The notes beneath the pieces are model-generated. The model made no database searches. It had not been told where the DNA came from and saw only the letters and a list, made by a program, of their open reading frames with translations. Shown here one piece after another: positions 7,329 to 56,305 of a stretch of 56,703 nucleotides of DNA. Position 1 is the first letter of the stretch. Each line of letters begins with the position of its first letter. Made by a program: the position numbers and the translations under genes. The stretch spans positions 1 to 56,703 of the forward strand of contig CAILAH010000026.1 in the NCBI GenBank assembly GCA_903832205.1, written 5' to 3'. The stretch comes from an uncultured Candidatus Micrarchaeota archaeon. GTDB lineage: Archaea > Micrarchaeota > Micrarchaeia > CAILAH01.

Positions 7329-7352
7329 AGTATTCACCTTGTAGTATTATCG

Positions 7353-7988
7353 TTACTGTTTTGCGCCCGCATTGATGAGCAATATTGCCGCATCGTTGTG
7401 GCGGTGCTCCTTTGCGAGCATTAGCGCGGTGCTCCCAGAGCGGTCCCACAATGTAAAGTCCGCTTTTGCATCCAGGAGCGCGCGGGTAATCCTGAGAACT
7501 GAATCATGGGGCATGAGTGCCATTACCACTATAAGCGCGGTCTGGCCGTACATGTCCCTCATGTTGACGTTTGCCTTGCGCTTAATGAGCAAGTCGACTA
7601 CATCGCAGCATCCCCATTTGGCCGCAGCCATCAGTGCCGTTGCGCCCATATGGTCGGTTGCATCAATATTTGCGCCATTGTCAAGAAGCACTCCCACTAT
7701 TTCCGTTTTCGCATCTTGGGCAGCGCGGATCAGGTGCGTGAGGCCGCCGTTGTTGAGGCGCGTGTTTACCTTTACGCCCTTTCTAATCAGGTCCCTTACC
7801 ACTTCAATATCCCCGCACATAATTGCCTCAGACATTGCATGGTACATCTTCAGGTGCTCCGCATCCTCAAATGCCGGGTTCGCCGGATAAACCTTTTCCG
7901 TTGCGGGCTTCTTGGCGTTGAATTGCACGCCGACGGATTTTACACCTGCTGTCTTTCCATCCTTCTTTTTCGTTTTTGTATCATTCAT
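7353..7988 (-). CDS. Ankyrin-repeat protein (untagged)
   Basis: Repeats of the type GLTHLIRAAQDAKTEIVGVLLDNGANIDATD and GATALMAAAKWGCCDVVDLLIKRKANVN. Starts at ATG 7988 after GGTGAATACT. Confidence 0.85.
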   Translation of the reverse strand: MNDTKTKKKDGKTAGVKSVGVQFNAKKPATEKVYPANPAFEDAEHLKMYHAMSEAIMCGDIEVVRDLIRKGVKVNTRLNNGGLTHLIRAAQDAKTEIVGVLLDNGANIDATDHMGATALMAAAKWGCCDVVDLLIKRKANVNMRDMYGQTALIVVMALMPHDSVLRITRALLDAKADFTLWDRSGSTALMLAKEHRHNDAAILLINAGAKQ

Positions 7989-8010
7989 AGTATTCACCAT
8001 TAGCATAATC

Positions 8011-8844
8011 TTATTCCACGCCACCCACGCCTAAAGCCTCAGAGGGCCGGAGGTTGGCGAGGATGTACCTCTTGCCGCCGAGGTCGTTGTTGCCGCCGCG
8101 AGCCAGAGGTCTTACACCCACTCCACTTATCCTGTAAAAACTGCGCTTCTCTTCATCCGATAATTGGCCCAAGAGTAGCACTTCTGTCTGCAATGGGATG
8201 CGGGTTCTTTCATCAACCTTTCCTACAGTGCCATCCTGAAGCAGGCCGTGGAGGACGATTATTGTTTTGGGGTTAATGATTATGTTTCTGCTTTCCTCAT
8301 GAATCATTCCCGGGTCGATAAATAAGCCTATGCCCTTTTCTCCAATTGCGTTAGGTGGAATGTAACTTGCCGGAAGTGTCCAGCCGGTTTTGGAATCTAC
8401 GATGTCTTTTCCTTGAACAAAGACTCCATCTTCCTCGGGGTATGCGAGTATCTCCCTTGCCCACGCTGAATAATAGTTCCTTTCTTTCAAGGGTTCCCAC
8501 TTTTCAGAATGGACAAGATAATCATCATGAAGAACGTTTGACGGAAGATGAAGGCGATGTGTTGACACAAGCTTGAACGCCCCCAGATAATCAAATCTTA
8601 TGGAGCGATTGGTGACCGGTGCCGCTGCGATTATTATGGAATTGGCAGGACGCCCTGCTGAGAGTATTTTTATTTCCTTTCCTAAATCGTTCTCTGCATA
8701 AGTGGAAACTACATTTGCTTTTTGTAATGGCTTCTCAGGCGCGGGCTTCTCCGCGCAGAATGGGGCCTCATGGCGCCTAATCCTGCCGAGAACTTCGGCC
8801 TTCTTTTTTTGGTCGATCAATGCTCCAAAATATCTTTCTGCCAT
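8011..8844 (-). CDS. Paralogue of the DGR target protein (46551..47351) with a degenerate VR-like C terminus
   Basis: Collinear with the DGR target: NDLGKEIK, HLPSNVLHDDYLV-SEKW, YY-AWAREILAYPE-DG-FVQG, KTIIVL-GL, FYRISG-GVRP-AR, and both end in ..GVGGV. Its N terminus ERYFGALIDQ is a decayed form of the EREGLFGQDV tag. Confidence 0.85.
   Translation of the reverse strand: MAERYFGALIDQKKKAEVLGRIRRHEAPFCAEKPAPEKPLQKANVVSTYAENDLGKEIKILSAGRPANSIIIAAAPVTNRSIRFDYLGAFKLVSTHRLHLPSNVLHDDYLVHSEKWEPLKERNYYSAWAREILAYPEEDGVFVQGKDIVDSKTGWTLPASYIPPNAIGEKGIGLFIDPGMIHEESRNIIINPKTIIVLHGLLQDGTVGKVDERTRIPLQTEVLLLGQLSDEEKRSFYRISGVGVRPLARGGNNDLGGKRYILANLRPSEALGVGGVE
8031..8110 (-). repeat. VR-like segment (remote, degenerate copy of the DGR TR/VR)
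   Basis: The coding strand GCTCGC GGC GGC AAC AAC GAC CTC GGC GGC AAG AGG TAC ATC CTC GCC AAC CTC aligns to the TR GCTCGC GAC AAC AAC AAC CTC AAC AAC AGG AGG AAC ATC AAC TGC AAC AAC. Most differences fall at TR adenines, but several do not. Confidence 0.5.
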
Positions 8845-8863: not shown

Positions 8864-11044
8864 TTATTCTCCCTTCTTCTCCGCCTCTAGTATTGCGTTC
8901 ATTGTCTTCTTGGTGACGTCAATCATCAGGTTTGCCATGTCCTCATCCTTGTTGATGGGGTCGGTCACGGCATGGCCTGCCGCTGCAAAGTCCGAGGCGG
9001 TGGTGTTGCCGTATGAGCCGAGCCTTACGAAGACCACCTGGTGCCTTTTCATGGAGGCGAGCAGCTCGTCCTTCGCGGTGCTCCAGTTGTATATTTCACC
9101 GTCTGAGAGCAGGATTATCAGTGAGGGGTCCGCCTTGTCGAGCTCGGGGCACAAGACCTTCGGGTCGAGCTGCGTGCCGCCGCTCTGGTAGTTGAACATC
9201 GCCCTGCGGATTGCATCCGCCTGGGAGAAGTCCCTCCATCCGCTCACTACGGTTGCATCCGAGAACGTGACCATCTGTAATTTTATGTACGGGAGTATGC
9301 CCTCGCGCTGCAGCCATTTCATCGTTCCAACTGCGCCAAGCAATGCGAAGTGGTAGCCGCTGCCTTCAGGCCACGGGATTATCGAGTTGCTCCTGCTTCC
9401 GCAGAACATTGAGCCGGATGTGTCCACTATCCACATCACGTTCGGGAATCCCTTTATCCCCTTCATGAACGGGAAGTTCATCTCGTACTTGAACCTGTGT
9501 GCGCCAAGCGTTGGTTCGCCCTCGTCACTTAGCATAGGGCCGAATATGTCCCTCTGCTCGTGCACGTCAGGGTCGAATTCCTCCGGCTTGAACTTCTTCA
9601 CCGGCATGCTCATCCCCTTGTCCTCCTCTTCCGCAGTGATCGGGATGTCTGCCGCCTCAATCTCATAGTAGTATTGCACTGCTTCGGCCGCATCCATAAA
9701 GTGCGGCACGCCTGCGGAGCCTGCGCCCCTGCCGCGTCCCTTTCCCTTTGCGCGGTTGATGCGGTCCTCCATTACTTTCTTTCTCTGGTCGTCCTTCTCC
9801 AGCTCCTTGTCCATGGTGTCGCTGCCTGGGCCGCTTTTCTTCTCGTTTACCTTATCATCCTCGTTTGAGCCGTCCGATATGTCCTTTGAATCGTATTCGT
9901 CGCCGCTGTCTTCAATGTCCCCGTCCGGGCGCTGCTCTTTCTTTCCCGAGCCGCCGCCCTCGCCGTCCTCCTTTTCGCCCTTTTCCTTTTCGTCCTTTTC
10001 CCCTGAGCCCTTGCCGCCATCCTTGTCCTCCTTGCCGTCGCCAGGCTTGTCGGATTTTTCCTTGCCGCCCTTTCCTGCACCTGAGCTTTCGTCAACGTCT
10101 GCCTGGCCTTGGCCCTGGCCTTCTCCTTCTCCCTCGCCCTGCTGGCCTTCCCCCTCACCTTCCTGGGATTCGCCCTGCTCACTCTGGCCCTGGCCGCCAT
10201 CCTTGTTTTTCTTGGGCTTTGAGTTGCCCTTAACTATCTTCACCAAATGATGGGTGTTCTTTGCGAATATCTTCGCCATTGAGACCCAGTTCTTCTCGTT
10301 CATGAGGACCTTGTGCATGTCCTCCTGGGACATGTTTTGAACGCCCCATTCCTTCAGCACGTTCTCCGCGGCGGTCCTTGCCTCTGCAAGCTCGGCGCCT
10401 GAAAGCTTTGAGAAGTTGGGCTGGAGCAGTTTCCTGTCCTCCGCATCGCCCCACACGTGCAGCTGCACGAGCATGTAGGCCGCGAAGAATTTCGTGAAAT
10501 GCCCTGTCTCTGAGTAGAATACGCTGAGCGACCTCTCGCCCTCATACCTGAGGTGCGCGTTATCGGCTATGTCCTCGAAGCAGTTTGCGAGGTGCTGGAT
10601 GAGGCTCTTGCTTTTCTTTCCTGCTGATTTCAAAAAGTCTGCTATGCCGTCCTGTATGTCCACGTGCATGGGGACCGAGTGCGGGCACACCTTCCAGTGG
10701 CCGATCTCGTGGTCGCCTGCAAAGTGGCACGCCTGCTTCACGGGGTCGATTATGCCGTGGTCTGAGCAGTATTTGATTACGATGCCCCTGTCGGGGTTCC
10801 AGAATACGTTGAGGCGCACGTGCGCGTCCCACTGCTCAAGGCCGATTTCAGCCTCGAGCGGGCGGCCCTTGATGTTGGCATTGAGCGGCTCAATCTTGAT
10901 TGTGCCACCAATCATGCCCCTCTCAACCCTCAGGCTGGTGAGGTCCCTGCGGATTTCTTCGAGCATTTGGGGAGTAGTAAAAGCCTTAATTTTGCGCTTA
11001 GGCTTGTCGGATTCTTTCTTTTTGAATATTGAGAACATGCCCAT
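8864..11044 (-). CDS. Metallopeptidase-like (HExxH) N-domain, ~150-aa acidic G/E/K/D low-complexity linker and C-terminal VWA domain (DUF2201/COG3864-like MoxR partner, family call tentative)
   Basis: FAGDHEIGHWKVCPH contains HExxH. The linker is GEGEGQQGEGEGEGQGQGQ...KDEKEKGEKEDGEGGG. VWA MIDAS motif in MWIVDTSGSMF, with later IILLSDGE. Confidence 0.8.
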   Translation of the reverse strand: MGMFSIFKKKESDKPKRKIKAFTTPQMLEEIRRDLTSLRVERGMIGGTIKIEPLNANIKGRPLEAEIGLEQWDAHVRLNVFWNPDRGIVIKYCSDHGIIDPVKQACHFAGDHEIGHWKVCPHSVPMHVDIQDGIADFLKSAGKKSKSLIQHLANCFEDIADNAHLRYEGERSLSVFYSETGHFTKFFAAYMLVQLHVWGDAEDRKLLQPNFSKLSGAELAEARTAAENVLKEWGVQNMSQEDMHKVLMNEKNWVSMAKIFAKNTHHLVKIVKGNSKPKKNKDGGQGQSEQGESQEGEGEGQQGEGEGEGQGQGQADVDESSGAGKGGKEKSDKPGDGKEDKDGGKGSGEKDEKEKGEKEDGEGGGSGKKEQRPDGDIEDSGDEYDSKDISDGSNEDDKVNEKKSGPGSDTMDKELEKDDQRKKVMEDRINRAKGKGRGRGAGSAGVPHFMDAAEAVQYYYEIEAADIPITAEEEDKGMSMPVKKFKPEEFDPDVHEQRDIFGPMLSDEGEPTLGAHRFKYEMNFPFMKGIKGFPNVMWIVDTSGSMFCGSRSNSIIPWPEGSGYHFALLGAVGTMKWLQREGILPYIKLQMVTFSDATVVSGWRDFSQADAIRRAMFNYQSGGTQLDPKVLCPELDKADPSLIILLSDGEIYNWSTAKDELLASMKRHQVVFVRLGSYGNTTASDFAAAGHAVTDPINKDEDMANLMIDVTKKTMNAILEAEKKGE

Positions 11045-14450: not shown

Positions 14451-15272
14451 CTATTTCTTTTCCTTTGCCGCCTTCTCGGCAATCTCCTTTGTCAGCTGCT
14501 TTTCCAGTAATGCAACGAGGTCTTGATTTCTGGGCACAATATTCGATATTAGCGATATTACGTTATTCCCATTATTTTCGCAGATGCCCACGCGCGCTCC
14601 CTTTTCTATGAGCTGCTTGCAGATCTCTAATTGAGATCTGGCCGCGGCGAACATAAGGGCGGTTACGCCATCCTTATCCTGGCTATTTAGCTTGGCTCCC
14701 TTCTCGATGAGCAGCTCGCACATCCTCTTGTTATTGTTACGGGCTGCGCACATGAGGGCAGTCTCATCCTCACGCCCCCTCTTGTTCACATTGGCGCCCC
14801 TCTCTATGAGGAACATTGCCGTGTCGGTACCCTCCTTTGCATGGGCTTCTTTTACATAGGTGGCCAAAATCGTCAGCGGTGTTTGGCCGGTCTCGTTCTT
14901 TGCGTTCACGTCCGCATCCCTTGATGCGAGGAACCTGGCAACATCGAAATGGTTATTGGCCAATGCGCACATGAGCGGCGTTGAGCCCTTTACCCAGTTG
15001 GGGCTGGCCGCATCTATTGAGGCGCCCTTGGCGAACAGGTCCTTTACGGCCTGCAGGTCGCCCTTCTCAGCAGCAGCAAAAAAAGACTGATTTAATGCAT
15101 CCAGGTCGGCAAGCGCCTTTGCCTGAACTTTCCTCACGCCATCCATCACCGCATCGGACCTGGCCTTTTCCTGGTCAAACGGCTTCTTGGTATCAACGGT
15201 AGAAACATCAGTGCCGAACAGGCCTTCCCGTTCTATTGCATCAAGCATTGGGTCTCTCTTTTTTTGCACCAT
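14451..15272 (-). CDS. Tagged array protein, ankyrin-repeat class
   Basis: N terminus is MVQKKRDPMLDAIEREGLFGTDV. Ankyrin repeats follow (GSTPLMCALANNHFDVARFLASRDADVNAKN, ETALMCAARNNNKRMCELLIEKGAKLN, and others). Confidence 0.9.
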   Translation of the reverse strand: MVQKKRDPMLDAIEREGLFGTDVSTVDTKKPFDQEKARSDAVMDGVRKVQAKALADLDALNQSFFAAAEKGDLQAVKDLFAKGASIDAASPNWVKGSTPLMCALANNHFDVARFLASRDADVNAKNETGQTPLTILATYVKEAHAKEGTDTAMFLIERGANVNKRGREDETALMCAARNNNKRMCELLIEKGAKLNSQDKDGVTALMFAAARSQLEICKQLIEKGARVGICENNGNNVISLISNIVPRNQDLVALLEKQLTKEIAEKAAKEKK

Positions 15273-15281
15273 GAGTATCAC

Positions 15282-21464: not shown

Positions 21465-22778
21465 TCACTTCCTCGTTGCCGCTGCAAGCGTTGAAAGCCA
21501 CTCTGCAATAGGCGTCCATTCCTTGTCAAGCGCGCTTATCACGTCCGGGTGCAGTGCGCCGTGCTTCAGCTCGGCGAATGCCCTCGTCAATACGGTTTCC
21601 TTGTCCTTGAACCTTGCCTGTATCCTTCCAATGACCTCGTTTGCGAACAGGATGGGGTTGCCTTTGTGGTTTTGCTCAACGAACCTCGGGTCAAAAATGC
21701 CCAGGGGCGGCGCAACTATCCTGAACACCTGGAGGACATCCGCCACATCGTTCTTCATGGTCGGCGTCACTTCGCGCTCGTCATCCTGTGCCTGTGCCAA
21801 GTTCTTCGACTCGGCAACGGCCTGGAGCGCAAGCGTCAGGCGCATTATGTTCTTCATCGCACGGGTTGACGGGGCCTTTACGAAGCCGCAGCCGCCTGCG
21901 AGGTCTTCGCATCCCTTGCACACTATTGAAGGTATGCCGGACTTGATCTTCTTCTTCTCCATCTTCATCTTGCTGCACCAGTTCAGGCCGAACCTGAGGT
22001 ACTGGGCCATGAGAAGCATGTTGGAAGTTGGCTGCAGCTCGCTGATCACCTTTGACATCGCGATGAACTCGTCGTCCCACTTTATCTTCTGCTCCGCCTC
22101 GTAGACGTGGACGCGCGGGTCGTGGTCTCCCGCCAGTATGTGCGAAAAGTCGCTCGGCGAGATCTCAAAGTGGTTGAGGTCGATAATAACGTTAAGGCGG
22201 TCAAGCAGTGCGTCACCCAGCTCGAACGTGCCCGAATGCTCCTTGCCGACGTTTCCCGTAGCCAGCATGACTGCATAGCCGTCGCCAATCCTGTGCTCCT
22301 TTCCCCTGTGCCTGAACACCCCGTTTGCGAGTGAAAGCAGCTGGTTCTGCACGATTGGCGGGCCCCTGGTAATCTCATCAACCACGATGACGTGGGTGTT
22401 GAGGGTTTCGGTTAATTCATGAATATCAGCATCTGTTAATGCCTGCTTGTTGTAGAGCTTTCCGAGGTTCAGCCTCGCATAAAGCTCCTTCACTGACAGG
22501 TCGGGCTCCATCTCCAGGAACACGCCCCTGCCGCCGAATGCGCGGAAGAAGAAGTCGCTCACCGCATCCGTCTTTCCCTCACCGCGGCCTCCTGCCAAAA
22601 AGAGGTTTGACCTTGAAATGAGGCAGGCCTTGATTACGTCCTCCACCTGGAGGGACTGGCCGCGCACGGTTGCGATTACTGCCGAGTTGCGGTACTTGTC
22701 AGGCGTTGGAACCCTGGCAATACGCGGAGCCAACTCGTCAAACACGGCCTGGTTGCTAAGCTTTTGAGCAGTTGTCAT
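21465..22778 (-). CDS. MoxR-like AAA+ ATPase with a C-terminal extension
   Basis: Walker A in LAGGRGEGKT. Walker B in HVIVVDEITR. Sensor or Arg-finger region MLATGNV...GDALLDRLNVIIDL. The ~200-aa C-terminal part includes CKGCEDLAGGC. Confidence 0.85.
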   Translation of the reverse strand: MTTAQKLSNQAVFDELAPRIARVPTPDKYRNSAVIATVRGQSLQVEDVIKACLISRSNLFLAGGRGEGKTDAVSDFFFRAFGGRGVFLEMEPDLSVKELYARLNLGKLYNKQALTDADIHELTETLNTHVIVVDEITRGPPIVQNQLLSLANGVFRHRGKEHRIGDGYAVMLATGNVGKEHSGTFELGDALLDRLNVIIDLNHFEISPSDFSHILAGDHDPRVHVYEAEQKIKWDDEFIAMSKVISELQPTSNMLLMAQYLRFGLNWCSKMKMEKKKIKSGIPSIVCKGCEDLAGGCGFVKAPSTRAMKNIMRLTLALQAVAESKNLAQAQDDEREVTPTMKNDVADVLQVFRIVAPPLGIFDPRFVEQNHKGNPILFANEVIGRIQARFKDKETVLTRAFAELKHGALHPDVISALDKEWTPIAEWLSTLAAATRK

Positions 22779-37605: not shown

Positions 37606-38616
37606 TTAGTCGATTTTGTACGCCCTTACTTTCAAGCCCGCCTCGTCAAGGAGCGCACGCGCGCTCTCAGCGAGCGGGTATTTCTCGTTGAAGACCACTT
37701 CCACAATGCCTGCGTTGATTATCATCTTTGCGCAGATCAGGCAGGGCGAGAACGTTGTGTAGATGGTGCACCCTTTGGTGCTCACGCCATTGTAGGCTGC
37801 CTGCACGATTGCGTTCTCCTCGCCGTGGGAGCAGTAGCAGTCCTCCAGGTTTTTGCCGCCCTCCTCAAAATTGTTGCAGCGCGGGCAGCCGCCCTCGCCG
37901 CAGTTCCTCGTCCTCCTGGGCGTCCCATTGTATCCAGTGGAGATTATCTGCTTCTCGCGCACAAGCAGCGCCGCCACCTTCCTCTTGACGCAGATGCTCC
38001 TTGCGGCCACCTGCTTTGCGATGTTCATGAAATAGGCGTCCCAGGTCGGCCTCTCCATCTTGAACTCCTTGGAGAACGCGCTGAGCGCGCCGTTGAGCTG
38101 CTCGTAGTACTGCTCGAACGTGCCGTTGTTTTCCACCTTCCTGTCGGCAAGCACAAACGTGCCGCTCAGGTTCTGCTTTGTCCTCTCCGCATTCTCCATC
38201 TCAAGCTGCTCCATCTCCTTGAACGCCTCGAACGTGGTGGCGTCCTCCTCCCTGCCGCGCCTCTTCTGCCTTTCAAAGCGGGCCTTGGCATCGGCGGTCA
38301 CGTATACAAGAAAGAAATTGCCAAGGCGCTTGAGCTCCTCCACTTCGGCAGGGTTGCGTATGGAATCTATGACGTAGTTTTTGTCCTTGCCCATCTTCTC
38401 CTTTGCGCGCATCGCAAGGACGGCTGGGCCGAACTTCTCGCGCAGCTCGTTGCCCTTCTGGATGAGGTTTTCCCTCGTCACCGCCTTGTCCTCTTCCTTC
38501 AGCGCCTCCCTTATCATGTCCGAGAGGGAGATGGGATAGAAGCTCTTTTTCGTGAGATAATCAATGGCGACGGTCTTGCCTGCGCAATTTTCACCTGTGA
38601 ACCCAATGACTAGCAT
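37606..38616 (-). CDS. Fusion of a P-loop nucleotide kinase-like domain with a dCMP/CMP deaminase domain
   Basis: N-terminal GFTGENCAGKT (P-loop). C-terminal CSHGEENAI (H-x-E) and FSPCLICAKMI (PCxxC). Starts at ATG 38616 (MLVIGFTG). Confidence 0.8.
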   Translation of the reverse strand: MLVIGFTGENCAGKTVAIDYLTKKSFYPISLSDMIREALKEEDKAVTRENLIQKGNELREKFGPAVLAMRAKEKMGKDKNYVIDSIRNPAEVEELKRLGNFFLVYVTADAKARFERQKRRGREEDATTFEAFKEMEQLEMENAERTKQNLSGTFVLADRKVENNGTFEQYYEQLNGALSAFSKEFKMERPTWDAYFMNIAKQVAARSICVKRKVAALLVREKQIISTGYNGTPRRTRNCGEGGCPRCNNFEEGGKNLEDCYCSHGEENAIVQAAYNGVSTKGCTIYTTFSPCLICAKMIINAGIVEVVFNEKYPLAESARALLDEAGLKVRAYKID

Positions 38617-38635
38617 AGGGATATTGCAAATGATA

Positions 38636-38652
38636 ATGCTAATAAATATTCC
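38636..38652. promoter_or_regulatory. Shared bidirectional TATA element for the 38616 (-) gene and tRNA-Asp (+)
   Basis: TGCTAATAAATATTCC is centred at about 38645, which is 29 nt from ATG 38616 and 29 nt from the tRNA 5' end at 38674. Confidence 0.45.
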
Positions 38653-38673
38653 TTTGTTTAAAAACACTAGCAG

Positions 38674-44236: not shown

Positions 44237-45040
44237 ATGGTAACAATAAGCGTGATAGACGCCCACTGCCACCTTATGGACATGAAAAATGCGGATTTTG
44301 CCTCTTTTTCCAGCCCTGAGACTATTGACAACAGTGACGATGGCTGCAGAGGGGTGCGGGGCCGGCGCGGGCGGCCCTGCCTTGAGGCCATCGTTAACTG
44401 CGGCTATGATGCCAATTCGAGCACAAAAGCCGTTGAGATGAAGAAGGGAAAGTTGGCGGGAAACGTTAAGCTCTACGCCAATGTGGGGATTGGGCCGCAG
44501 AAGTGCATGGGCCCAGATGCGATGCAAAAAGTCGCTGAGATTGAAAGGATAGCCAGGGAAGATGAGAGAGCGATTGATGCGATAGGCGAGGTGGGATTGG
44601 ATTACCACTGGGGAGACACTACGGAAAAGAGGAATATGCAGAAAGTGGCGTTTGATGCACTGATAGCGCTTGCAAACGAGCTTCAGAAGCCCATTGTGAT
44701 ACATTCAAGGGAAACGACAAGCGAGTGCATACAATTGCTTGATGACGCGAAGTTCGAGCACGGGGTGATGTTCCATTTCTTCTCGGGAAATTCGCAGGAG
44801 GCGAAGGCGATTGCCGATAGGGGATGGCTGATTTCACTGCCGCCTTTGAGAGGGGGCAAAATGGGCATTGCAAGGGCGGTTGATTTGGAGAATCTTGTTG
44901 CGGAGACCGATGCGCCCTATGTCGGGAAGACGCCGCTTGACGTGAGAAAATCCATGGTGATGATTGCAGAGGCCAAGGGAATTAGTTTTGAGGAAGTGGA
45001 AAAGGAAACGAGCACAAACGTGAAGGAATTCTTTGGATGA
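44237..45040 (+). CDS. tatD: TatD-family metal-dependent hydrolase/DNase
   Basis: VIDAHCHL, GEVGLDYH, PIVIHSRE and ETDAPY are TatD blocks. GTG 44252 is an alternative start. Confidence 0.85.
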   Translation: MVTISVIDAHCHLMDMKNADFASFSSPETIDNSDDGCRGVRGRRGRPCLEAIVNCGYDANSSTKAVEMKKGKLAGNVKLYANVGIGPQKCMGPDAMQKVAEIERIAREDERAIDAIGEVGLDYHWGDTTEKRNMQKVAFDALIALANELQKPIVIHSRETTSECIQLLDDAKFEHGVMFHFFSGNSQEAKAIADRGWLISLPPLRGGKMGIARAVDLENLVAETDAPYVGKTPLDVRKSMVMIAEAKGISFEEVEKETSTNVKEFFG

Positions 45041-45054
45041 ACAAGAAAACGAAA

Positions 45055-46158
45055 CTAAGGAATGCGCAGCCAAAGCACACCCTGCCAATTATGGTTAACA
45101 AAAAGCCGGTTAAATTCTGCAGCAACTTTCCTTCTAAAATTATATGTGTTGGCAAACCGCGCATAGGCAAGCCATCCACAAAAGCTATGCACCGTCTGCT
45201 CTCTTGTAACTGCACACCTATCAAGTTTGCGCCTCAACCGCTCAAGGTGCTTCCAAATCCTATTGGCATTACTTTTCTTTAGAAGCCTGTAAGAAAAGAA
45301 AATCCTGAAGCCAAGTAGCGTTATTCCCTTTCTTAACGGGACAACTTTTGACTTTTCAGGGTGCAGTTCTATTTTCAGGCAGGCTGCGAGGAATTCATTT
45401 ATCTTTTTTAGCCACCCCATCAGAATCTCCTTCCTTGCATGCAACAGCACAAAATCATCAACATAACGGAGATAGTGCCTTGCCTTCAACTCGTGCTTCA
45501 CGAAATGGTCAAGCTCGTTCAGGTAGACGTTGGCAAAGAATTGGGAGGTTAAATTCCCAAGCGGCATTCCCTTTCCAGGTATGGAAGCCTTGTGGTTTTG
45601 CAGTATTTTTCTTACAAGGCAGATTACCCGTGCATCCCTAATCTTCCGCTCAAGTATGCCAATCAGGACTTCGTTGTCTACCGTGTCAAAATAGCGCCGT
45701 ATGTCTGCCTTTAGGGCATAGCCCATTATGGCATTCCTGTTTGTCTGGTCTGGCAATAGTCTTCCATTTCCGGATACTTTTCGCACGAATCCTTCAAAGC
45801 GAATTATCGCTGGGTGTGTGCCCTTGCCCTTCCGGTTGGCAAACGAATCGTAGATAAAGCTCTTTTCAAAAATCGGCTCAAGAATATTGCATATGGCGTG
45901 GTGCACAACCCTGTCCCTGAAATGGGAGGCACTGATTACCCTTGTCTTCGGGTCCCTTATCACAAAGGTGGTTAGCGACCTTGGGAAATATGCACTGGTC
46001 TCCAGCTCATGCTGAAGCTCTTTTAGGTTCTTCTCCAGGTCCCTTTCAAACTCCTTAACATAATCCTTGTTTGTTTTTCTTTTTCTTGCTTTTTTGTAGG
46101 CGAGAAGGAGATTCTCATAAGAACAGAGGTTTGAATACAGGTTTTTGTAGGTCTTCAT
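45055..46158 (-). CDS. DGR-type reverse transcriptase
   Basis: Starts at ATG 46158 (MKTYKNLYSNL). RT blocks ADIRRYFDTVD, MPLGNLTSQFFANVYL ([IL]GxxxSQ, the DGR hallmark, versus QGxxxSP in group II introns) and RYVDDFVLL. 367 aa, with no maturase or endonuclease tail. Confidence 0.85.
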   Translation of the reverse strand: MKTYKNLYSNLCSYENLLLAYKKARKRKTNKDYVKEFERDLEKNLKELQHELETSAYFPRSLTTFVIRDPKTRVISASHFRDRVVHHAICNILEPIFEKSFIYDSFANRKGKGTHPAIIRFEGFVRKVSGNGRLLPDQTNRNAIMGYALKADIRRYFDTVDNEVLIGILERKIRDARVICLVRKILQNHKASIPGKGMPLGNLTSQFFANVYLNELDHFVKHELKARHYLRYVDDFVLLHARKEILMGWLKKINEFLAACLKIELHPEKSKVVPLRKGITLLGFRIFFSYRLLKKSNANRIWKHLERLRRKLDRCAVTREQTVHSFCGWLAYARFANTYNFRRKVAAEFNRLFVNHNWQGVLWLRIP

Positions 46159-46211
46159 AATATCCCAGAGAAAGGTAGTAAATCTCCGGAATGCAAGCCA
46201 AAAGAGCCATT

Positions 46212-46289
46212 CGAAACCAGAGCCGGGGTCGTTGTTGCAGTTGATGTTCCTCCTGTTGTTGAGGTTGTTGTTGTCGCGAGCCACGGGCC
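46212..46289 (-). repeat. DGR template repeat (TR)
   Basis: The coding strand is GGCCCGTGGCTCGC GAC AAC AAC AAC CTC AAC AAC AGG AGG AAC ATC AAC TGC AAC AAC GACCCCGGCTCTGGTTTCG. It has nine AAC codons and lies 54 nt upstream of the RT ATG. It is read through only artefactually by ORF 45055..46335. Confidence 0.8.
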
Positions 46290-46482
46290 CAAATGGTAAC
46301 CCGCCTACTAAAATGGCACGAAGTGCCCTCACCACAGCTTCACGTTTCAGCTTGCAAAACCTACTAAATGTCGCCGTTGAATTTCATGTCCGGCATGCAT
46401 TAAGCGTCCGGCACTGCAGGCAGGTGTGTGGCTCCAGGCTTGCACCCGGAGGAAACTAAATGAAGGAGAATCTTTTTATTCA

Positions 46483-46526
46483 TTGCAAAAATCGCGCGAA
46501 GCCCTTTCGGGCTCCTTTTTTTGCAA
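46483..46526 (-). promoter_or_regulatory. Long hairpin downstream of the VR (DGR target-recognition stem-loop and/or terminator candidate)
   Basis: TTGCAAAAA/TTTTTGCAA outer arms enclose GAGCCC-GAAA-GGGCTT. It begins ~25 nt after the target-gene stop and is followed on the minus strand by a T run. Confidence 0.5.
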
Positions 46527-46550
46527 CGTGGTTATTTTAGCTGAGGCGTA

Positions 46551-47351
46551 TTAAACGCCACCCACCCCGAAACCAGAGCCGGGGTCGCCGCTGCAGCCGA
46601 TGTTCCTCCTGCCGTCGAGGAGGCCGTCGCCGTCGCGAGCCACGGGCCTAACACCTATCCCGCTTATCCTGTAAAACCAGCGCTTTTCATTATCATTCAA
46701 TTGGGCGAATATTTGGGCGCCAACCTGTAATGGGACGCGCGTGTTTGGGTCAACCTGGCCTGCACCTCCTGATTCTTGTATTAGTCCGCTAAGAACAATT
46801 ATTGTTTTTGGAATCACGACCATCTTTCCATTTTCTTCTTTTACTTCTTCGGGGTCTATGAATAATCCTGCTCCCTTCACGCCTAGTGCTTGCAGTGGAA
46901 CATTCTTCGCCTCAAGTGTCCAGCCGCTTTCACTGTCAATGACATCCAGGCCCTGGACAAACATTCCATCTTTTTCTGGATATGCAAGTATCTCCCTTGC
47001 CCATGCAGCATAGTAGCCCTTCTTGTTCAGCTCTTTCCATTTCTCAGAGCCGACTAAATAATCATCGTGAAGGACGATTGAGGGGAGATGAAGGCCTTGT
47101 GCTGCAACGAGCCTTACTGATTCAAGGTAGCCTGCGTTTATTACCTTGTCACCTGTTCCCGTGATTAGCTTAATTTCCTTGCCTAAGTCGTTTGCCAAAT
47201 ATGTGGATGAGGGCAGGATTACCCTTCCCGGTTCTGGTGTGGGCTTCACCTCTTTGAACGGCTTGCTAAGGTCAACGCTGCGGACATCCTGGCCGAATAG
47301 GCCTTCCCTTTCAATCGCATCCAGTATCGGGTCCCTTAGTTTTGGAGCCAT
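46551..47351 (-). CDS. DGR target (variable) protein carrying the array-type N-terminal tag
   Basis: N terminus MAPKLRDPILDAIEREGLFGQDV, near-identical to the ankyrin array member's tag. The C terminus ..FYRISGIGVRPVARDGDGLLDGRRNIGCSGDPGSGFGVGGV* contains the VR. Starts at ATG 47351 after AGGTG. Confidence 0.85.
   Translation of the reverse strand: MAPKLRDPILDAIEREGLFGQDVRSVDLSKPFKEVKPTPEPGRVILPSSTYLANDLGKEIKLITGTGDKVINAGYLESVRLVAAQGLHLPSIVLHDDYLVGSEKWKELNKKGYYAAWAREILAYPEKDGMFVQGLDVIDSESGWTLEAKNVPLQALGVKGAGLFIDPEEVKEENGKMVVIPKTIIVLSGLIQESGGAGQVDPNTRVPLQVGAQIFAQLNDNEKRWFYRISGIGVRPVARDGDGLLDGRRNIGCSGDPGSGFGVGGV
46568..46648 (-). repeat. DGR variable repeat (VR)
   Basis: Aligns to the TR over 78 nt plus one extra CTC codon. 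All 13 substitutions sit at TR adenines (AAC to GGC, GAC or AGC). The invariant 3' block GACCCCGGCTCTGGTTTCG (IMH-like) is identical in both. Confidence 0.8.
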
Positions 47352-47472
47352 AAGCATTGCACCTAAGTTATGTAGTATTAGGTAAATAAGAAGTATTTAA
47401 ACATTGCTACGATAGGCAGGAAGGCGTTTAGCTCGGTCAGAAATATAAACTTCGGATGCCATAATAATAGTT

Positions 47473-47676
47473 ATGTCTGGTGCGAACATAAACCTGATTG
47501 AAAAAAGGCTTGAGAGGCTTGAGAAAAAGATAGATGTGGTTACTTCTTTTATTGAAGACGTGACCATGACAAAGGCACAGCATAAGCGCTACTTATCGGC
47601 ACTTGCGGCAATAAGGTCTGGAAAGGCTAAAAAATGGGTGAGGGCAGAAGACTTCTATAAAGAGTTGAACAAGTAA
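47473..47676 (+). CDS. Small basic helical protein (67 aa), function unknown
   Basis: MSGANINLIEKRLERLEKKIDVV... is coiled-coil-like. A TATA-like AAATATAAAC is centred ~27 nt upstream of the ATG. Confidence 0.5.
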   Translation: MSGANINLIEKRLERLEKKIDVVTSFIEDVTMTKAQHKRYLSALAAIRSGKAKKWVRAEDFYKELNK

Positions 47677-47759
47677 AAACCAGGGCTTGTCAATTATGTC
47701 CTTATTATATAGATTGCATTCGCAACTTATCGATAATCTCCGTATCCTAGCTGTAGCAC

Positions 47760-50700
47760 TTACAATTTGTCGATGATGTCCCTTACCCTGTCGGCCGCCT
47801 TCTTCATTGTGAGCAGGACGAATCCCAAATCCTCATCGGGCTTGATGATTGCCAGGATGAGCGACTGCTCACCTGCACGCACGACTATCTGCCTGCCGAG
47901 CTTTGCATTGAACGCAACGTAGGTCACGTCGCCGCGATTGAGCGCCTTTGATGCCGCTTCCGCCTTCTGCATTGCCGTGGCGCTGCCTGCAGCTACTGAT
48001 TCTGCGTTTCCACCCATGGGCAGGTTGGAACTGATTACAAGGCCGTCCTTACGGAGAATCATGCCGCCCAGTATGCGCTTGGTATCAATCATCTCCTTCA
48101 TGATGTTCTCCAAGTCTGACTTGCCCATGCCCTTTATCGCCTTGAGCTTCACGATTGTGTTGCCCTCTAGAGTCACAGGGAGGTCGGTTTCGGAAACGAA
48201 GCGCTCCACCACCCAGGGCCTCCACTCTGGAGGTATGGCGCTGAGCATTGCAGGGTCAACGCGCTCCTGCCTGCGCAGTAAGCCTTCAATCGACGATTTC
48301 CAGCCAGGCCATGCGGAGAGCACCTCGCTCTTCCTGCGCAGCGTTAATAGTATGGAGTCCGCCTTTGTGTTAAGCGAGATTATGTCATTCTTTATTGATT
48401 CTGCCTCGTCAAGGCCGAACGACTCAATCCTGTCGCGGACTGGTTCCGTGCTCGTGGCATAGAGGCGTTCCATCTCCTCGAAAGGCGCCAGCCCGTTCTT
48501 CTTGCATACCTCAACAAGCGTGTTCGCCTCGTTCAATTTCCCGTCAACGGTGTTGAGCTGCTCGGTGAACTGCTGCGCCGCCGCGACTTTCTTCTTAAGC
48601 TCTGCGGCCATGTCGGAAAGGATGGTCACGGAATTGTTGAGCTCCTTCTCATCAATCTCATTTTTCTCTATCGCCTCAATGATGGAGTCCACGTTGAGGC
48701 CGCCAAGGCGCTTTGAATAGTCCTCCGTGCCCAGGCCGTACCCCTTGCCGCGGGTTATGAGCGTTGAGATTTCTGTGAACAATTCATTTACGCGCTCGAA
48801 CGCATTCACCGATACCATGAATTTCGCAATGGTGTTCTTGATGTCGGACTCGATTTGCGCAAAGCTGTCCGCGAGCTCCTTGCTCCTGGTGACGGATTCC
48901 TCAAGCGGCAGCGATGCGATGGGCGCCATGGCCTCCTTGCCGCCGAATGCCAGGAACCTCTTTTCGTAAATGGAAACATCTATGCTGTTCTCCTTTGCTT
49001 GTGCTATGAGCGCGGGGATTGACTCGAGATGCCTGTCGATTTCTGCAAGATGCGACCTCATCTCGCCTTCCTCGGAAATGGTCCTGCCCAGCACTTCCTG
49101 TATGTGCTTCATCTTCTCATCAATGGTGGTGATGAGCTCCGATGACTTGTCAAACTGCTTGGACCTCATGTTCTCGTTCATGTGCACGAGCAGCGTCTCA
49201 ACCGACGTTATGAGGCGGTCGCCGCGCGCAATCTTCTTTGCCTTGAGCTCCATGGCGAGCGATTCGAGCTCGTGCCTCAGGTCAGTATGCTTTGCCATGA
49301 ACCCCTCATCAAGCGATACGCCGCAGCTGTCGCATTTGTCTGAAGCGAGCGTGGTGGTGCGGCCGCACACGGGGCAGGGGAACTTGGTGAGCATGAGGTG
49401 CTCCACATCTGACATCTTTGCCTGGATTGAATTGCGCTCCAGCTTCAGGTTCTCCGCTATTGCATCAAGGTATTTCTTGGCCGCAATGAACCCCTGGCCG
49501 GAGTATATGATCGGGTAGCGGTTTGCCTCAATGCGCCACTCCTTCTTTTCGAACTTTACGCCGTAATTTGAGAACTTGCGGTAGAGCGACTCAATCTGGT
49601 CTATCTCATCCTCCACCTCTTCGCGCATCTTCTCAAGCACCTTCTCCTGGTCCATGCTCACGGAAAGCATCCCGTGCAGCGCCGCATATTCCTTGCGCAG
49701 CGTCTTTTCAATCATAAGCTCCGCATCCTCAAGCTCGCCGCGGGACATCTTTGTCTCAACGGCCGAGAGGTAGGCGAAGAACAGGTCGGCGCGCTTTGCA
49801 TCGAACGCCGTGCCCGCAACCGCCGCGCTTTCCCTGAGGCCCATGATTTCGGTGCGCATCTTCTGCACCTCATCCTTCATCTCCTTCTCAACAACCACCT
49901 TGCGGATGCCCTGCTCGACTGGGGCGCGCAAATAGCGCTCGCCAATCAGGCGCGCCTTGATGATGTCCTCCAAAACGAAGCCGAAGAGAATCAATCCCAC
50001 GAGCAGGACGGAAGAGCCGAGAAGTATGTTCGTGTTGGTTGAGAGCACCTGTATGGGGTCGTCTATTATGGGCTCGCCCGCCGAAAATACCAGGTAGCCG
50101 CCGAGCGCGAGCGCAATGACCGCGGCAATCAGGAACTCGTTCCTGCCTCGGCCGCCATAGCCTGCAATCCTGTAGAATGCCTCCGCAATGGGCTCGTGCT
50201 TCCCCGCGCTGGCGAACAGGCTCAGCACAAGGCGGACCACCGTGTACGCAAGATAGAGCACGAGAACGAGCGCGAACGCAACAAGGGCGAGCGCAAACCC
50301 GAACCCCACGTATGCGTGCAATGAGAGGAGCAGCGAAGTGAAGAATGCGCGGAACTGCACGAACGCGCCGATGTTCTCAAGGTTGAGCACCTTGATTGAG
50401 CCGGAGGGATAGGTTATCTTCTGCATCTCCAGGTCCCAGTTTGCCGGGCCCGAGGCTGCCTTGTAGCCGAAGTCGGAATTTATCTGTGAGATTTTCTTGA
50501 AGTCAAGCCTGTACCTCACAGTGAGCGGCACCGAATCCGAAATGTAAATCGGCGGGACCGTGAGGAAAGTCACCGAGGATTGGCGGGTCGCGAATGATTC
50601 CGGGATAATCTCGTCGACCTCTATTACCGCATTCTCATTATAGGTATAGGACGTCTTGGATGTGATTTCGAATTTTGAATATGCGGAGAAATACTGCACC

Positions 50701-51470: not shown

Positions 51471-51784
51471 GGATAGGCCGGGGGGCCAGGGGTCCCTTGT
51501 TACCGCAAATCCCCTTTAGGCGGGGCCGAAAAGCCGGAAGAGGCTTCGAGTTCGTGAGCGGGTCCGCAGGTTCCGCGTCGATCTCCTGCCTTACGCGGCG
51601 GTTCACTGTGTGAACCGGGTCAGATCGGAAGAAGCAGCCCTAAACTCTGTGTGCCGTGCCGTGAGTCTACAGGAGGGAGTTGGCCTGCGGGGTGCCTTAA
51701 CACGGATTCCCTGTCCATTCCGGTGAATCCACTCACTGATGAAAGGGGGAGGGCCCCCTTTCCTCGTGTGGTCTACACCTATCC
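51471..51784 (+). ncRNA. Signal recognition particle (7S/SRP) RNA, archaeal type
   Basis: Helix-8 signature GGGTCAGATCGGAAGAAGCAGCCCTAA at 51616-51642. Helix-5 pairing CCGCAGG (51565-71) with CCTGCGG (51693-99). Terminal GGATAGG/CCTATCC pairing. About 314 nt. The exact 3' end is uncertain. Confidence 0.75.
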
Positions 51785-55828: not shown

Positions 55829-56305
55829 TTAGTAAGACCTTCCATTCATCCTTTTCCACTTCTCAAAGGGCACAAGGCATTCGTTGCGCATGAATGCAGG
55901 GGTTATTTTTGTCTTTAGGTGCCCGAGCATCTTGAGCTTGAGATTGTGGATCTTAAACTCGTGAAAACCGTAGTGCGCGGCGTCCTCGATTGTCGCACCG
56001 AAGTAGATGTCCCTTATCCTCGCCCAGTGTATCGCCGTGAAGCACATGGGGCAGGGTTCCGCCGTCGAATAGATAGTGCAGCCGGTGAGGTCGATGGAGC
56101 CGAGCTTTTTTGCCGCCTTGCTTATCGCATTCATCTCAGCATGAGCGGTTGGAGTGCAGCTCTTCCACACGGTGTTATGCGCCACGGCGAGCAGTTTGCC
56201 GTTCTTGTCAACGATTGCGGCACCGAACGGCCCGCCTTCCTTCTTTGTGATGCCCGCGATTGCGGACTTGATTGCTAGTTTCATGTAATGCTCATGAGTT
56301 GCCAT
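55829..56305 (-). CDS. CMP/dCMP-type zinc deaminase (TadA or guanine-deaminase-like)
   Basis: HAEMNAI (H-A-E) and EPCPMCFTAI (PCxxC). Confidence 0.85.
   Translation of the reverse strand: MATHEHYMKLAIKSAIAGITKKEGGPFGAAIVDKNGKLLAVAHNTVWKSCTPTAHAEMNAISKAAKKLGSIDLTGCTIYSTAEPCPMCFTAIHWARIRDIYFGATIEDAAHYGFHEFKIHNLKLKMLGHLKTKITPAFMRNECLVPFEKWKRMNGRSY

Follow-up and report, generated by a model that had tools for sequence, protein, structure and literature searches.

Our analysis indicates that the minus strand of this contig very probably carries a genuine and complete diversity-generating retroelement (DGR), located on the chromosome of a Micrarchaeota-like DPANN archaeon and organized as a target-TR-RT architecture free of accessory genes. 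The stretch analysed, hereafter the window, comprises 56,703 nt of contig CAILAH010000026.1 (assembly GCA_903832205.1), assigned to an uncultured Candidatus Micrarchaeota archaeon. Every defining element of a complete DGR was found, and in the order given by the original prediction. A target gene with a 3' variable repeat (VR) and a G-rich IMH is followed by two hairpins, an RT-16 RNA, the template repeat (TR) with its IMH*, a short spacer and an intact reverse transcriptase (RT) gene (Table 1). The gap between TR and RT, previously counted as 54 nt, had to be amended to 53 nt, the ATG of the RT (MKTYKNLY) being located at 46158. The archaeal context was borne out by the presence in the window of genes encoding TFB, aIF5A, S24e and Kae1, and the nearest relatives of both the target and the RT appeared in Micrarchaeota and Aenigmarchaeota MAGs.

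Table 1. Features of the cassette, from the target gene to the RT gene (window coordinates)
Feature	Position	Strand	Description
DGR target gene	46551..47357	-	ORF; 268 aa from MLMAPK, 266 aa from MAPK at 47351; stop TAA 46551-46553
N-terminal tag DPILDAIEREGLFG	47292..47333	-	common to ~20 tandem genes at 11252-31615
VR (variable repeat)	46568..46648	-	81 nt; codons 236-262 of 266 in target; 13 differences from TR plus 3-nt insertion
IMH-like G-rich element GGGGTGGGTGG	46558..46568	-	encodes conserved GVGG
Hairpin 1, GGCGT-TTAAT-ACGCC	46545..46559	-	directly 3' of IMH, overlaps stop codon; DNA fold
Hairpin 2, TTGCAAAAA...AGCCC-GAAA-GGGCT...TTTTTGCAA then T-run	46483..46526	-	DNA fold -26.4 kcal/mol, z -2.4
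5' arm (RT-16 P1 region) TCCTCCGGGTGCAAGCCTGGAG	46432..46453	-	complementary to post-TR spacer
RT-16 RNA (Rfam RF03019)	46291..46451	-	161 nt, immediately 5' of TR; cmscan
TR (template repeat)	46212..46289	-	78 nt, 23 A, nine AAC codons
IMH*-like element GAATGGCTC	46204..46212	-	TR counterpart of IMH
3' arm in TR-RT spacer CTCTTTTGGCTTGCATTCCGGAGA	46183..46206	-	pairs with RT-16 5' arm
DGR reverse transcriptase	45055..46158	-	367 aa; RVT_1 8.6e-21
LGNLTSQ (motif 4, aa 200-206)	45541-45561	-	RT motif
YVDD (aa 232-235)	45454-45465	-	RT motif

Evidence for this assignment comes from the comparison of the two repeats. The TR, whose coordinates were set by exact string location, reads PVARD-NNN-L-NN-RR-N-I-N-C-NN-DPGSGF with its nine AAC codons, and the VR reads PVARD-GDG-LL-DG-RR-N-I-G-C-SG-DPGSGF, both as previously proposed. 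All the 13 substitutions between them were said to fall on TR adenines, and they do (13/13; hypergeometric P = 5.2e-9, the TR having 23 A among its 78 nt), and the 55 non-A positions of the TR are all unchanged in the VR. A further feature, not stressed in the original prediction, is that the VR exceeds the TR by 3 nt, owing to an indel beside an AAC run. This indel can be placed in two ways, each of which leaves all mismatches on A: one placement gives 13 A-to-G changes, the other 11 A-to-G, one A-to-C and one A-to-T. A spectrum of 13 changes that are all readable as A-to-G is narrower than the classical A-to-N spectrum. In addition, the IMH* lacks one base relative to the IMH and, taken together with the extra 3 nt of the VR, this implies that the present VR did not arise by plain copying of the TR as it now stands. 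Both points tell against the assignment.

The VR occupies the 3' end of the target, and the TR is non-coding and adjacent to the RT gene. Their flanks are identical, as expected from the earlier reading: the 17-mer GGCCCGTGGCTCGCGAC and the 19-mer GACCCCGGCTCTGGTTTCG are both found at two sites of the window and nowhere else in it, versus 0.00-0.09 occurrences expected. The 19-mer had also been regarded as IMH-like, a view that did not stand, since it constitutes the 3' shared part of the repeat; the true IMH/IMH* contrast appears just past it, where the VR continues as ...TTTCGGGGTGGGTGG and the TR as ...TTTCGAATGGCTC. The same contrast between CGGGGT/TGGGGT on the VR side and CGAAT/TGGAAT on the TR side was detected in two related loci (L006 and L014), and has been described in Nanoarchaeota DGRs (PMC4372165). 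A second target of the TR within the window was rejected, as neither TR flank recurs outside the TR and the VR; the paralogue at 8011-8844 was likewise discarded as a target, its 3' end differing from the TR at 12 A and 8 non-A sites and lacking the flanks. A metagenome scan with the IMH-side 19-mer recovered no allelic copies of the VR, and the 10 loci with a single match to this 19-mer, devoid of target or RT homology, were considered chance matches.

The adenine pattern extends to sister cassettes and to the target family as a whole. All mismatches between TR and VR fell on adenines in L014 (19/19) and L044 (20/20), and L001 and L041 showed 13 mismatches each at A within the core. In L038, which comes from another sample and whose target is 53% identical, the VR matches the flanks of the TR described here exactly and differs from this TR at 14 A sites and 2 non-A sites. 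Changes other than A-to-G were found in several of these cassettes, namely seven A-to-T in L014, four A-to-T and two A-to-C in L044, and eight A-to-T and one A-to-C in L038. An indel of 3n nucleotides beside an AAC run recurs in L041, and such indels have been reported in otherwise canonical DGRs (PMC5758913). Across the target family, the nine AAC-templated positions displayed entropies of 2.4-3.9 bits (3.4-3.9 in eight of them), and K, E, Q, M and W, which NNC codons are unable to encode, amounted to 5.8% of the residues at these positions versus 33.6% at equally variable positions elsewhere. Family-wide variability lies in register with the AAC codons and keeps to the NNC repertoire; with the VR of L038, this offers indirect support for a mutagenic retrohoming that may be ongoing.

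Both the LGNLTSQ and YVDD motifs attributed to the RT are present, and the protein has ~8000 homologues, the top ones from DPANN archaea. Among its relatives on viral contigs, 26 of 33 are accompanied by TR/VR pairs of ~120 nt with A-dominated mismatches. The lack of a recognisable Avd gene was confirmed. The interval between target and RT contains no usefully sized ORF. Searches with Pfam yielded no Avd-family match among 10 of the short ORFs (66-189 aa) of the window, where ACT, ankyrin and deaminase domains were found instead, nor among the called genes of four related loci for which a precomputed gene table was used. Two sets of small ORFs were dismissed as Avd candidates: a basic 67-aa ORF at 47473-47676 (pI 9.8), which has no counterpart in related loci, and those located downstream of the RT in L044, which by eye look like a toxin-antitoxin pair. 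The order target-TR-RT is likewise kept in the other related archaeal loci. Avd is essential in the Bordetella phage BPP-1, and its absence here tells against the assignment. It is not universal, being present in ~74% of DGRs, and the Avd-less architecture A is an accepted class of DGRs (PMC5758913).

Several features of the locus could be read in other ways. Public annotations of homologues as 'group II intron RT domain' or 'retron-type RT', as well as a best NCBIfam match to a group II RT/maturase model (TIGR04416), might suggest a group II intron or retron-type RT lying beside a chance or duplicated repeat, without any DGR. However, this match stayed below the cut-off (154, with 300 required), as did the one to the retron St85 RT model (47.5, with 235 required), and the 367-aa protein bears no maturase or endonuclease extension, in agreement with the original prediction. 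Its best PDB match is 8ub7 (E=6.6e-48, 167 bits), which we take to be the RT of the Bordetella phage DGR (bRT), whereas group II intron RTs scored 77 bits or less; the IGSLTSQ of the 8ub7 chain aligned with the LGNLTSQ of the RT described here. At E<=5, no Rfam intron family was found in 44500-47900, and no retron RNA family (msr/msd) was matched. These results, along with the restriction of mismatches to adenines (P=5e-9), effectively refute the group II or retron reading, to which we give next to no probability. The A-to-G changes could also have arisen without misincorporation by the RT, if the gene end had been duplicated and then subjected to another process, such as A-to-I type deamination or selection. 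The fact that all 13 changes are readable as A-to-G would fit this explanation, as would the occurrence in the window of two genes for cytidine/deoxycytidylate-type deaminases (37606-38667 and 55829-56305), but these deaminases are of the CDA/dCMP type and unlinked to the cassette. Besides, the alternative gap placement yields one A-to-C and one A-to-T, and sister cassettes also contain A-to-T and A-to-C changes, which makes an origin by deamination or selection very improbable.

An unlikely, yet not negligible, alternative is that the cassette is a genuine DGR that is decaying or currently silent, in which homing has stopped and the VR is the frozen product of past events. The sole other contig found to contain the target (ENA ERZ1426812, from the same sample) encodes an identical protein, and the RT appeared frameshifted in three related loci. 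The paralogue 8011-8844 carries a fossil VR, and VRs can therefore become orphaned in this genome. Conversely, the RT ORF of the cassette is intact and retains all catalytic motifs, and the same integrity is seen in RT-16, the arms and the IMH. The complete conservation of non-A positions, together with the perfectly identical flanks, argues for recent homing, and the 3n indel does not speak for decay, since DGRs that are canonical in other respects show indels of this kind beside their AAC runs.

Between the VR and the TR, where a single hairpin had been noted, DNA folding predicts two, the proximal one overlapping the stop codon of the target. The loop of hairpin 1 is a non-canonical TTAAT, with no GRA or GNRA loop at the canonical position, and this hairpin is not kept in L039. 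Related loci contain hairpins with GAA loops at a similar distance past the VR. Hairpin 2 is a terminator-like or cruciform element.

The region immediately upstream of the TR revealed an association not anticipated in the original prediction. The RT-16 RNA was detected by cmscan with 73.1 bits (gathering score 50; E=1.8e-9) over model positions 1-158 of 158, and it occupies the same position 5' of the TR in all the related archaeal loci scanned (L001, L006, L014, L041, L042 and L044/L045), while being absent from 20 viral DGR loci. The two arms flanking the TR gave an RNAduplex energy of -32.4 kcal/mol versus -14.0+-3.2 kcal/mol for shuffled sequences, RNAalifold identified compensatory changes in 10 of 17 arm pairs, and the arm helix was present in both the MFE and the centroid folds of the whole RNA. 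Folding of 46100-46420 was uninformative (z -0.3) because the 5' arm is cut off in this segment. Since P1 alone already forms a hairpin, its complement could likewise fold on its own, and the arm complementarity could thus reflect a second, independent hairpin instead of a long-range helix. The role that we propose for RT-16 and the arm helix rests on nine related sequences and on analogy. RT-16 has been published without an assigned function, RT-10 being the only one of these motifs tied to a DGR (Weinberg et al. 2017, PMC5737381), and a link between RT-16 or the arm helix and DPANN DGRs was not found in the accessible literature.

We tentatively propose, as a composite model whose chances we put below even, that in this Avd-less archaeal lineage RT-16 functionally replaces both Avd and the 3' spacer RNA. 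A structured 5' scaffold, tied to the post-TR spacer through a helix of ~20 bp, would position the template and prime a partner-free RT; in the same model, the fold of the target would be new among DGR variable proteins, and in sister lineages the same RT would apparently be switched on and off through poly-G or (GA)n tracts in the motif 2a-3 loop. 

On our main reading of the cassette, for which the Bordetella phage paradigm serves as a guide, a single RNA would span RT-16, the TR, the spacer and probably the RT ORF, its transcription taking place downstream of the terminator-like hairpin of the target. The long-range arm helix and the RT-16 core would then form a scaffold bound by the RT, taking the place that the upstream-avd:Sp duplex and the Sp/Avd contacts have in phage BPP-1. 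Synthesis of cDNA would be primed in cis near the IMH*, and the TR would be copied with misincorporation opposite adenines, resulting mostly in A-to-G in the lineage of this cassette. Slippage on the AAC run during reverse transcription best explains the extra codon of the VR. The cDNA would subsequently replace the VR via the IMH on the 3' side and the identical 17-nt flank on the 5' side, recoding up to nine NNC positions and five other A-containing codons. By our own arithmetic, the 4^23 combinations would amount to ~7e13 variants at the DNA level and ~2e13 at the protein level. The surface so diversified would be the C-terminal one of a ligand-binding or sensor-type domain of ~195 aa.

The target itself matched no Pfam or NCBIfam model. 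Its family comprises 23 close homologues and ~416 representative clusters without a match to any named family, and neither Pfam searches on the 23 members nor a PDB profile search revealed a significant fold or domain match. Two AF2 models (pLDDT 86 and 97) were obtained, and in three Foldseek searches no PDB or BFVD entry reached E<=0.001; the best matches, with E about 0.1 and TM <=0.34, corresponded to OB folds and C-type lectin CRDs. In the model with pLDDT 97, the ~195-aa domain is predicted with confidence to adopt a compact, unrecognised fold with no significant match to a solved structure. Occasional fusions of this domain to histidine-kinase or ankyrin modules point to a protein that senses or binds inside the cell rather than to a surface adhesin. 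The target is probably non-secreted, as previously described, to judge from the absence of a hydrophobic segment (maximum KD19 = 1.29).

The target had also been described as a tagged protein, and its N-terminal motif was indeed traced in about 20 other genes of the window by tblastn, ORF translations and regex. These tagged neighbours cluster around a MoxR-type ATPase. Within the tag region, aa 8-16 of the 266-aa form are modelled as a helix, with low pLDDT. A profile search with 20 tag segments against 5.8 billion proteins found nothing at E<=0.01, and in 375 kb of archaeal loci the tag regex matched L039 only. The shared tag gives a hint that the hypervariation may serve a larger system.

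More than 30,000 DGRs have been catalogued so far, and DPANN archaea are rich in them; by itself, this cassette is one further DGR among those catalogued, and its value lies in the RT-16 context, the target domain and the tagged-gene family. The literature already describes DGRs in DPANN archaea, cassettes lacking Avd, 3n indels at AAC runs and targets devoid of signal or TM segments (PMC4372165, PMC5758913, PMC8144416). What our analysis newly shows in this well-documented type of cassette is an orphan RT-16 RNA as part of an archaeal DGR. A curated family without a function thereby acquires a precise genomic setting, 5' of the TR in an Avd-free archaeal DGR clade. Overall, a 367-aa RT and an RNA of ~300 nt would make up a minimal two-component system. 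Its reconstitution could help to explain how DGRs function in the absence of Avd, and the system is attractive for engineered targeted mutagenesis.

Compared with the prototype of Bordetella phage BPP-1 (mtd-avd-TR-brt), the RT belongs to the same family, given that 8ub7 is taken as bRT. Both systems share adenine-specific differences between TR and VR, a VR at the 3' end of the target, an IMH/IMH* pair and a hairpin downstream of the VR, the GAAA loop being found here in hairpin 2. In BPP-1, the RNA upstream of the TR pairs with RNA downstream of it (10.1101/2023.10.23.563531), as predicted here for the two arms. By contrast, the archaeal cassette has no Avd, its spacer to the RT measures only 53 nt, and its large structured RNA is placed 5' of the TR (RT-16, 161 nt) instead of 3' (Sp, about 140 nt). 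Likewise, its target is not recognisably a C-type lectin, and the element is chromosomal and archaeal whereas that of BPP-1 is phage-borne. With respect to the RT-16 motif, the likeness consists in a full-length match above the gathering score beside an RT gene; unlike RT-16 as published, it always abuts here the 5' end of the TR and pairs with the post-TR spacer.

Wu et al. (2018) report that 90% of their CPR/DPANN set belongs to architecture B3, in which a reverse-strand avd separates TR and RT (PMC5758913), whereas the lineage described here has no avd. It resembles architecture A1 (TR-RT), with which it shares the absence of avd, HRDC, MSL and CH1 genes, the core order target-TR-RT and the 3n indels beside AAC runs (PMC5758913). 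The cassette is an Avd-less 'architecture A' DGR of DPANN archaea. The DGRs of DPANN archaea and Nanoarchaeota (Paul et al. 2015, PMC4372165; Paul et al. 2017; archaeal clade 5 in Roux et al. 2021, PMC8144416) differ from it in the host, Micrarchaeota-like in our case, and in the loop of the post-VR hairpin, GRA in theirs and TTAAT here. They belong, nevertheless, to the same host group and have the same compact target-TR-RT cassette, the same type of contrast between an IMH TGGGGT and an IMH* TGGAAT with short hairpins after the VR (PMC4372165), and orphan targets that likewise lack a signal peptide, TM segment and known domains.

The element on the minus strand is a diversity-generating retroelement (DGR) as judged by those defining features that can be tested in sequence, leaving aside the accessory protein Avd, the fold of the variable protein and the hairpin loop. 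The sequence hallmarks of the class are present, apart from Avd, which is optional and absent here, and a canonical hairpin loop behind the variable repeat (VR). Reading of the minus strand across 44800–48600, together with a listing of the ORFs, bore out the predicted order of target, VR, template repeat (TR) and reverse transcriptase (RT). All 13 of the 13 substitutions between the repeats fall on TR adenines, as had been claimed, with a hypergeometric probability of 5e-9 for random placement. The repeats differ also by one 3-nt indel adjoining the AAC run; the gap admits two placements, in both of which every mismatch lies on an A, and one of which gives 13 of 13 A→G changes. The identical flanks (17 nt on the 5' side and 19 nt on the 3' side) match fully, and no further copy of either occurs within the window.

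Features of the DGR cassette and of the array of tagged genes
Feature	Coordinates	Strand	Remarks
DGR target ORF	46551–47357	−	MLMAPK start; public gene call starts at 47351
VR	46568–46648	−	81 nt, the 27 codons preceding the target's last five
TR	46212–46289	−	78 nt, 356 nt downstream of VR; nine in-frame AAC codons; 23 adenines
RT ORF	46158 (ATG) to 45055	−	367 aa; begins 53 nt past TR
Proximal hairpin	after IMH, overlapping stop codon	−	5 bp, loop TTAAT
Distal hairpin	40 nt beyond proximal hairpin	−	longer; GAAA loop and T-run
MoxR-type AAA+ ATPase gene	21465–22778		mid-array of tagged genes

The RT carries the DGR-type motifs originally predicted, LGNLTSQ at residues 200–206 and YVDD at residues 232–235, and RVT_1 is its only Pfam match. 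On the NCBIfam group II RT/maturase model it scored 154, the cut-off being 300, and far lower on the retron and Drt models. Its best match among all PDB sequences was by a wide margin 8ub7 (E=6.6e-48, 167 bits), a 328-aa chain named just 'Reverse transcriptase', group II RTs reaching a maximum of 77 bits, and Rfam searches of 44500–47900 returned no group II intron or retron RNA even at E≤5. Taken together, the model scores, the PDB ranking and the negative Rfam search lead us to reject both a group II intron and a retron identity, in line with the earlier remark that the RT has no group II intron maturase or endonuclease domains. We take 8ub7 to be bRT, the enzyme of the Bordetella phage DGR, from its length and its IGSLTSQ motif. 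A text search for '8UB' in the bRT–Avd–RNA cryo-EM preprint (10.1101/2023.10.23.563531) gave no match. About 8000 homologues of the RT occur in the public protein collection, the closest named ones belonging to Micrarchaeota and Aenigmarchaeota MAGs (55–69% identity) and the nearest relatives on viral contigs being 35–42% identical. In 26 of 33 viral-contig relatives, a repeat of ∼120 nt with A-dominated mismatches lies upstream of the RT, so that these are true DGRs.

In this RT clade, the loop between motifs 2a and 3 is often encoded by a simple-sequence repeat, either poly-G (G10–G11, encoding GGGG) or (GA)n (encoding ERERER), as observed in the related loci L001 (∼7560–7590), L006 (∼3120–3140) and L014 (∼7540–7560), in the RT loop of L041 and in the homologous proteins P0003–P0114. 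The RTs of L001, L006 and L014, sister loci found via the target and hence unselected for an intact RT, are all three frameshifted exactly at the loop repeat. To judge from these sequences, the frameshifts look like either slipped-strand phase variation of the DGR RT or assembly error at the repeats; our search found no paper on repeat-based phase variation of a DGR RT. The loop of the window RT is of the repeat-free type.

The lack of a recognisable Avd was corroborated, with no useful-sized ORF in the target–RT interval, no match to the Avd family among the 10 short window ORFs scanned (66–189 aa) and no Avd-family Pfam match among the genes called at L041, L044 and L080–L082. A 67-aa basic ORF divergent from the target (47473–47676, plus strand; pI 9.8, helical) was considered as an Avd analogue, a role that is unlikely because the ORF, which matches no family, has no counterpart beside the sister cassettes. 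The absence of Avd is real but not new, since 29% of curated DGRs have the accessory-free 'architecture A' and homing that does not depend on Avd has already been put forward (PMC5758913).

Around the TR, the hairpin of the original prediction is indeed seen, but a larger RNA had been overlooked: the 161 nt directly 5' of the TR (46451→46291) are a full-length match to the Rfam family RF03019, RT-16 (73.1 bits, gathering score 50). Weinberg et al. described 19 'RT' motifs in the vicinity of RT genes, RT-16 among them; they tied RT-10 alone to a DGR and left the others without assignment (PMC5737381). We found no assignment of RT-16 in the later literature. The RNA takes the same position, behind the target stop and ahead of the TR, in L001, L006, L014, L041, L042 and L044/L045, the 5' end of L042 being cut so that its RT-16–TR–RT part alone is visible. 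It was not found in 20 viral DGR loci scanned, four of which (L046, L055, L063 and L065, IMG/VR contigs) contain RT-14 (RF02921) instead. In these four of the 20 loci, which have A-biased TR/VR pairs, RT-14 sits directly upstream of the RT (by ∼150 nt), and on this placement it is probably a further DGR RNA element. Weak VR/TR homology extends 5' of the identical flank (46290–46330 versus 46649–46690, minus strand) and enters the 3' end of RT-16 (TAAGCGGGATAGGTGTTAGGCCC versus TAGGCGGGTTACCATTTGGGCCC), so that the conserved helix at the RT-16 3' end coincides in part with sequence originating in the conserved 'SGxGVRP' coding region of the target.

Complementarity links the 5' end of RT-16 (22–28 nt, the P1 hairpin region) with the spacer starting right after IMH*, the TR counterpart of the G-rich IMH at the VR 3' end. 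In the window this arm duplex has an energy of −32.4 kcal/mol versus −14.0 ± 3.2 for shuffled spacers, and p=0.002 was obtained in six of the nine loci tested, one of the others having been mis-parsed by a regular expression. RNAalifold predicted 17 pairs over nine loci, 10 of them with compensatory changes, and the fold of the whole RNA (46456→46150) contains the arm helix in both MFE and centroid structures (z −2.4). Since P1 is self-complementary, two separate hairpins are possible in place of the arm helix. In BPP-1, the prototype Bordetella phage DGR, an upstream segment pairs with the post-TR spacer and helps to position and stop reverse transcription (10.1101/2023.10.23.563531); by analogy, the arm helix would bracket RT-16 and the TR. 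What is anatomically new here is modest, namely the placing of RT-16 in this DGR clade and the arm helix, and the finding would be of higher value if RT-16 were the RNA that makes Avd dispensable.

Independent evidence comes from the target family. A search with a profile of the target domain against 1.84 billion representatives yielded 416 clusters. When 136 of these were aligned, the entropy at the AAC-templated positions was 2.4–3.9 bits (eight of the nine at 3.4–3.9), with conservation of the scaffold residues in between (R239, I251 and the flanking GV). K, E, Q, M and W, which are beyond the reach of NNC codons, account for 5.8% at the nine templated positions versus 33.6% at positions of equal variability that lie outside the VR. 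The entropy register and this restriction of residues argue that AAC-templated adenine mutagenesis, in just this register, has shaped the entire family. The target has no Pfam or NCBIfam match, and its lack of a hydrophobic segment agrees with the view that it is non-secreted. AlphaFold gave confident models (pLDDT 86 for the whole protein; 97 for the domain modelled with 136 sequences). Foldseek searches of PDB and BFVD returned nothing at E≤0.001, and the best of the weak matches were by turns OB folds and C-type lectin CRDs (TM ≤0.34). The fold would be either novel among DGR variable proteins or that of a lectin, strongly diverged and carrying an insertion. In a few members the domain is fused to a histidine kinase and receiver or to ankyrin repeats (HisKA–HATPase–receiver modules or long ankyrin arrays, as in P0198, 661 aa, and P0163, 648 aa), which hints at a sensor or binding module and would suit ligand sensing.

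The N-terminal tag also proved real, DPILxxxxxEG(I/L)(L/F)G preceding at least 20 differing C-terminal regions. In the form of a K/R-rich stretch followed by DPILxxYxxEGILGxKPG, it occurs in about 20–24 genes of a tandem minus-strand array (11252–31615), the DGR target being tagged too; the C-terminal regions are unrelated and include predicted TM segments, helical repeats and ankyrin repeats (14451–15281). Related archaeal loci, 375 kb in all, are nearly devoid of the motif. Elsewhere in the window, a target paralogue (8011–8844, minus strand; 48% identical) has another N-terminal module and ends in a fossil VR, which keeps the VR length and an AAC AAC pair, lacks the flanks and shows 12 A-site and 8 non-A differences from the TR. 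It adjoins an ankyrin-repeat gene (7353–8024, repeats judged by eye), and two nearby proteins without Pfam match (6543–7337 and 8864–11044) have MIDAS-like DxSGS motifs by eye.

The archaeal context stands, as the window encodes TFB, with S24e, aIF5A and Kae1/TsaD as immediate neighbours of the cassette. An SRP RNA at 51471–51730 (plus strand) has as its best model, after clan competition, the bacterial large SRP RF01854 (81 bits). In species-representative genomes the target family occupies 27 loci, nearly all labelled Micrarchaeota, and the RT directly follows the target in three of them (L001, L006 and L014). Six loci found via RT homologues (L041, L044 and L080–L083) repeat the window's order, with a target of ∼240–280 aa, a gap of ∼300–430 nt and the RT. 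Mismatches between TR and VR lie at A in 19 of 19 cases in L014 and 20 of 20 in L044, and L001 and L041 have 13 each at A within the core, L041 with 3-nt and 6-nt indels adjoining AAC runs. A→G is the most frequent change in all cassettes, A→T and A→C being present too, so that the A→G-only look of the window's VR is an extreme of a lineage bias and not the mark of another mechanism. L038, from another sample, encodes a target 53% identical to that of the window, with a terminal VR whose flanks equal those of the window TR exactly; this VR has the TR length and shows 14 A-site differences (eight A→T, five A→G and one A→C) and two non-A differences. The first ∼100 residues of P0122 are identical to the window target and the remainder to P0130, a mosaic that stems either from assembly of a chimera or from recombination among paralogous targets; P0122, P0121 and P0130 come from one ENA sample (ERZ1426812). 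L039 contains two target paralogues in tandem.

The sequence that directly follows the identical 19-mer on its 3' side is GGGGTGGGTGG in the VR and GAATGGCTC in the TR, and the same site differs in relatives (TGGGGT versus TGGAAT in L014; CGGGGT versus CGAAAT in L006). The contrast at the window's VR and TR is that of IMH and IMH* described for Nanoarchaeota DGRs (PMC4372165). Relatives with targets extending past the VR have GC-rich GAA-loop hairpins at equal distance, like the post-VR hairpins of published archaeal DGRs, whereas the proximal hairpin of the window is a non-canonical version. DGRs of DPANN archaea, cassettes without Avd, orphan targets free of signal or TM segments and 3n indels at AAC runs are all on record, and the cassette thus belongs to a kind already described.
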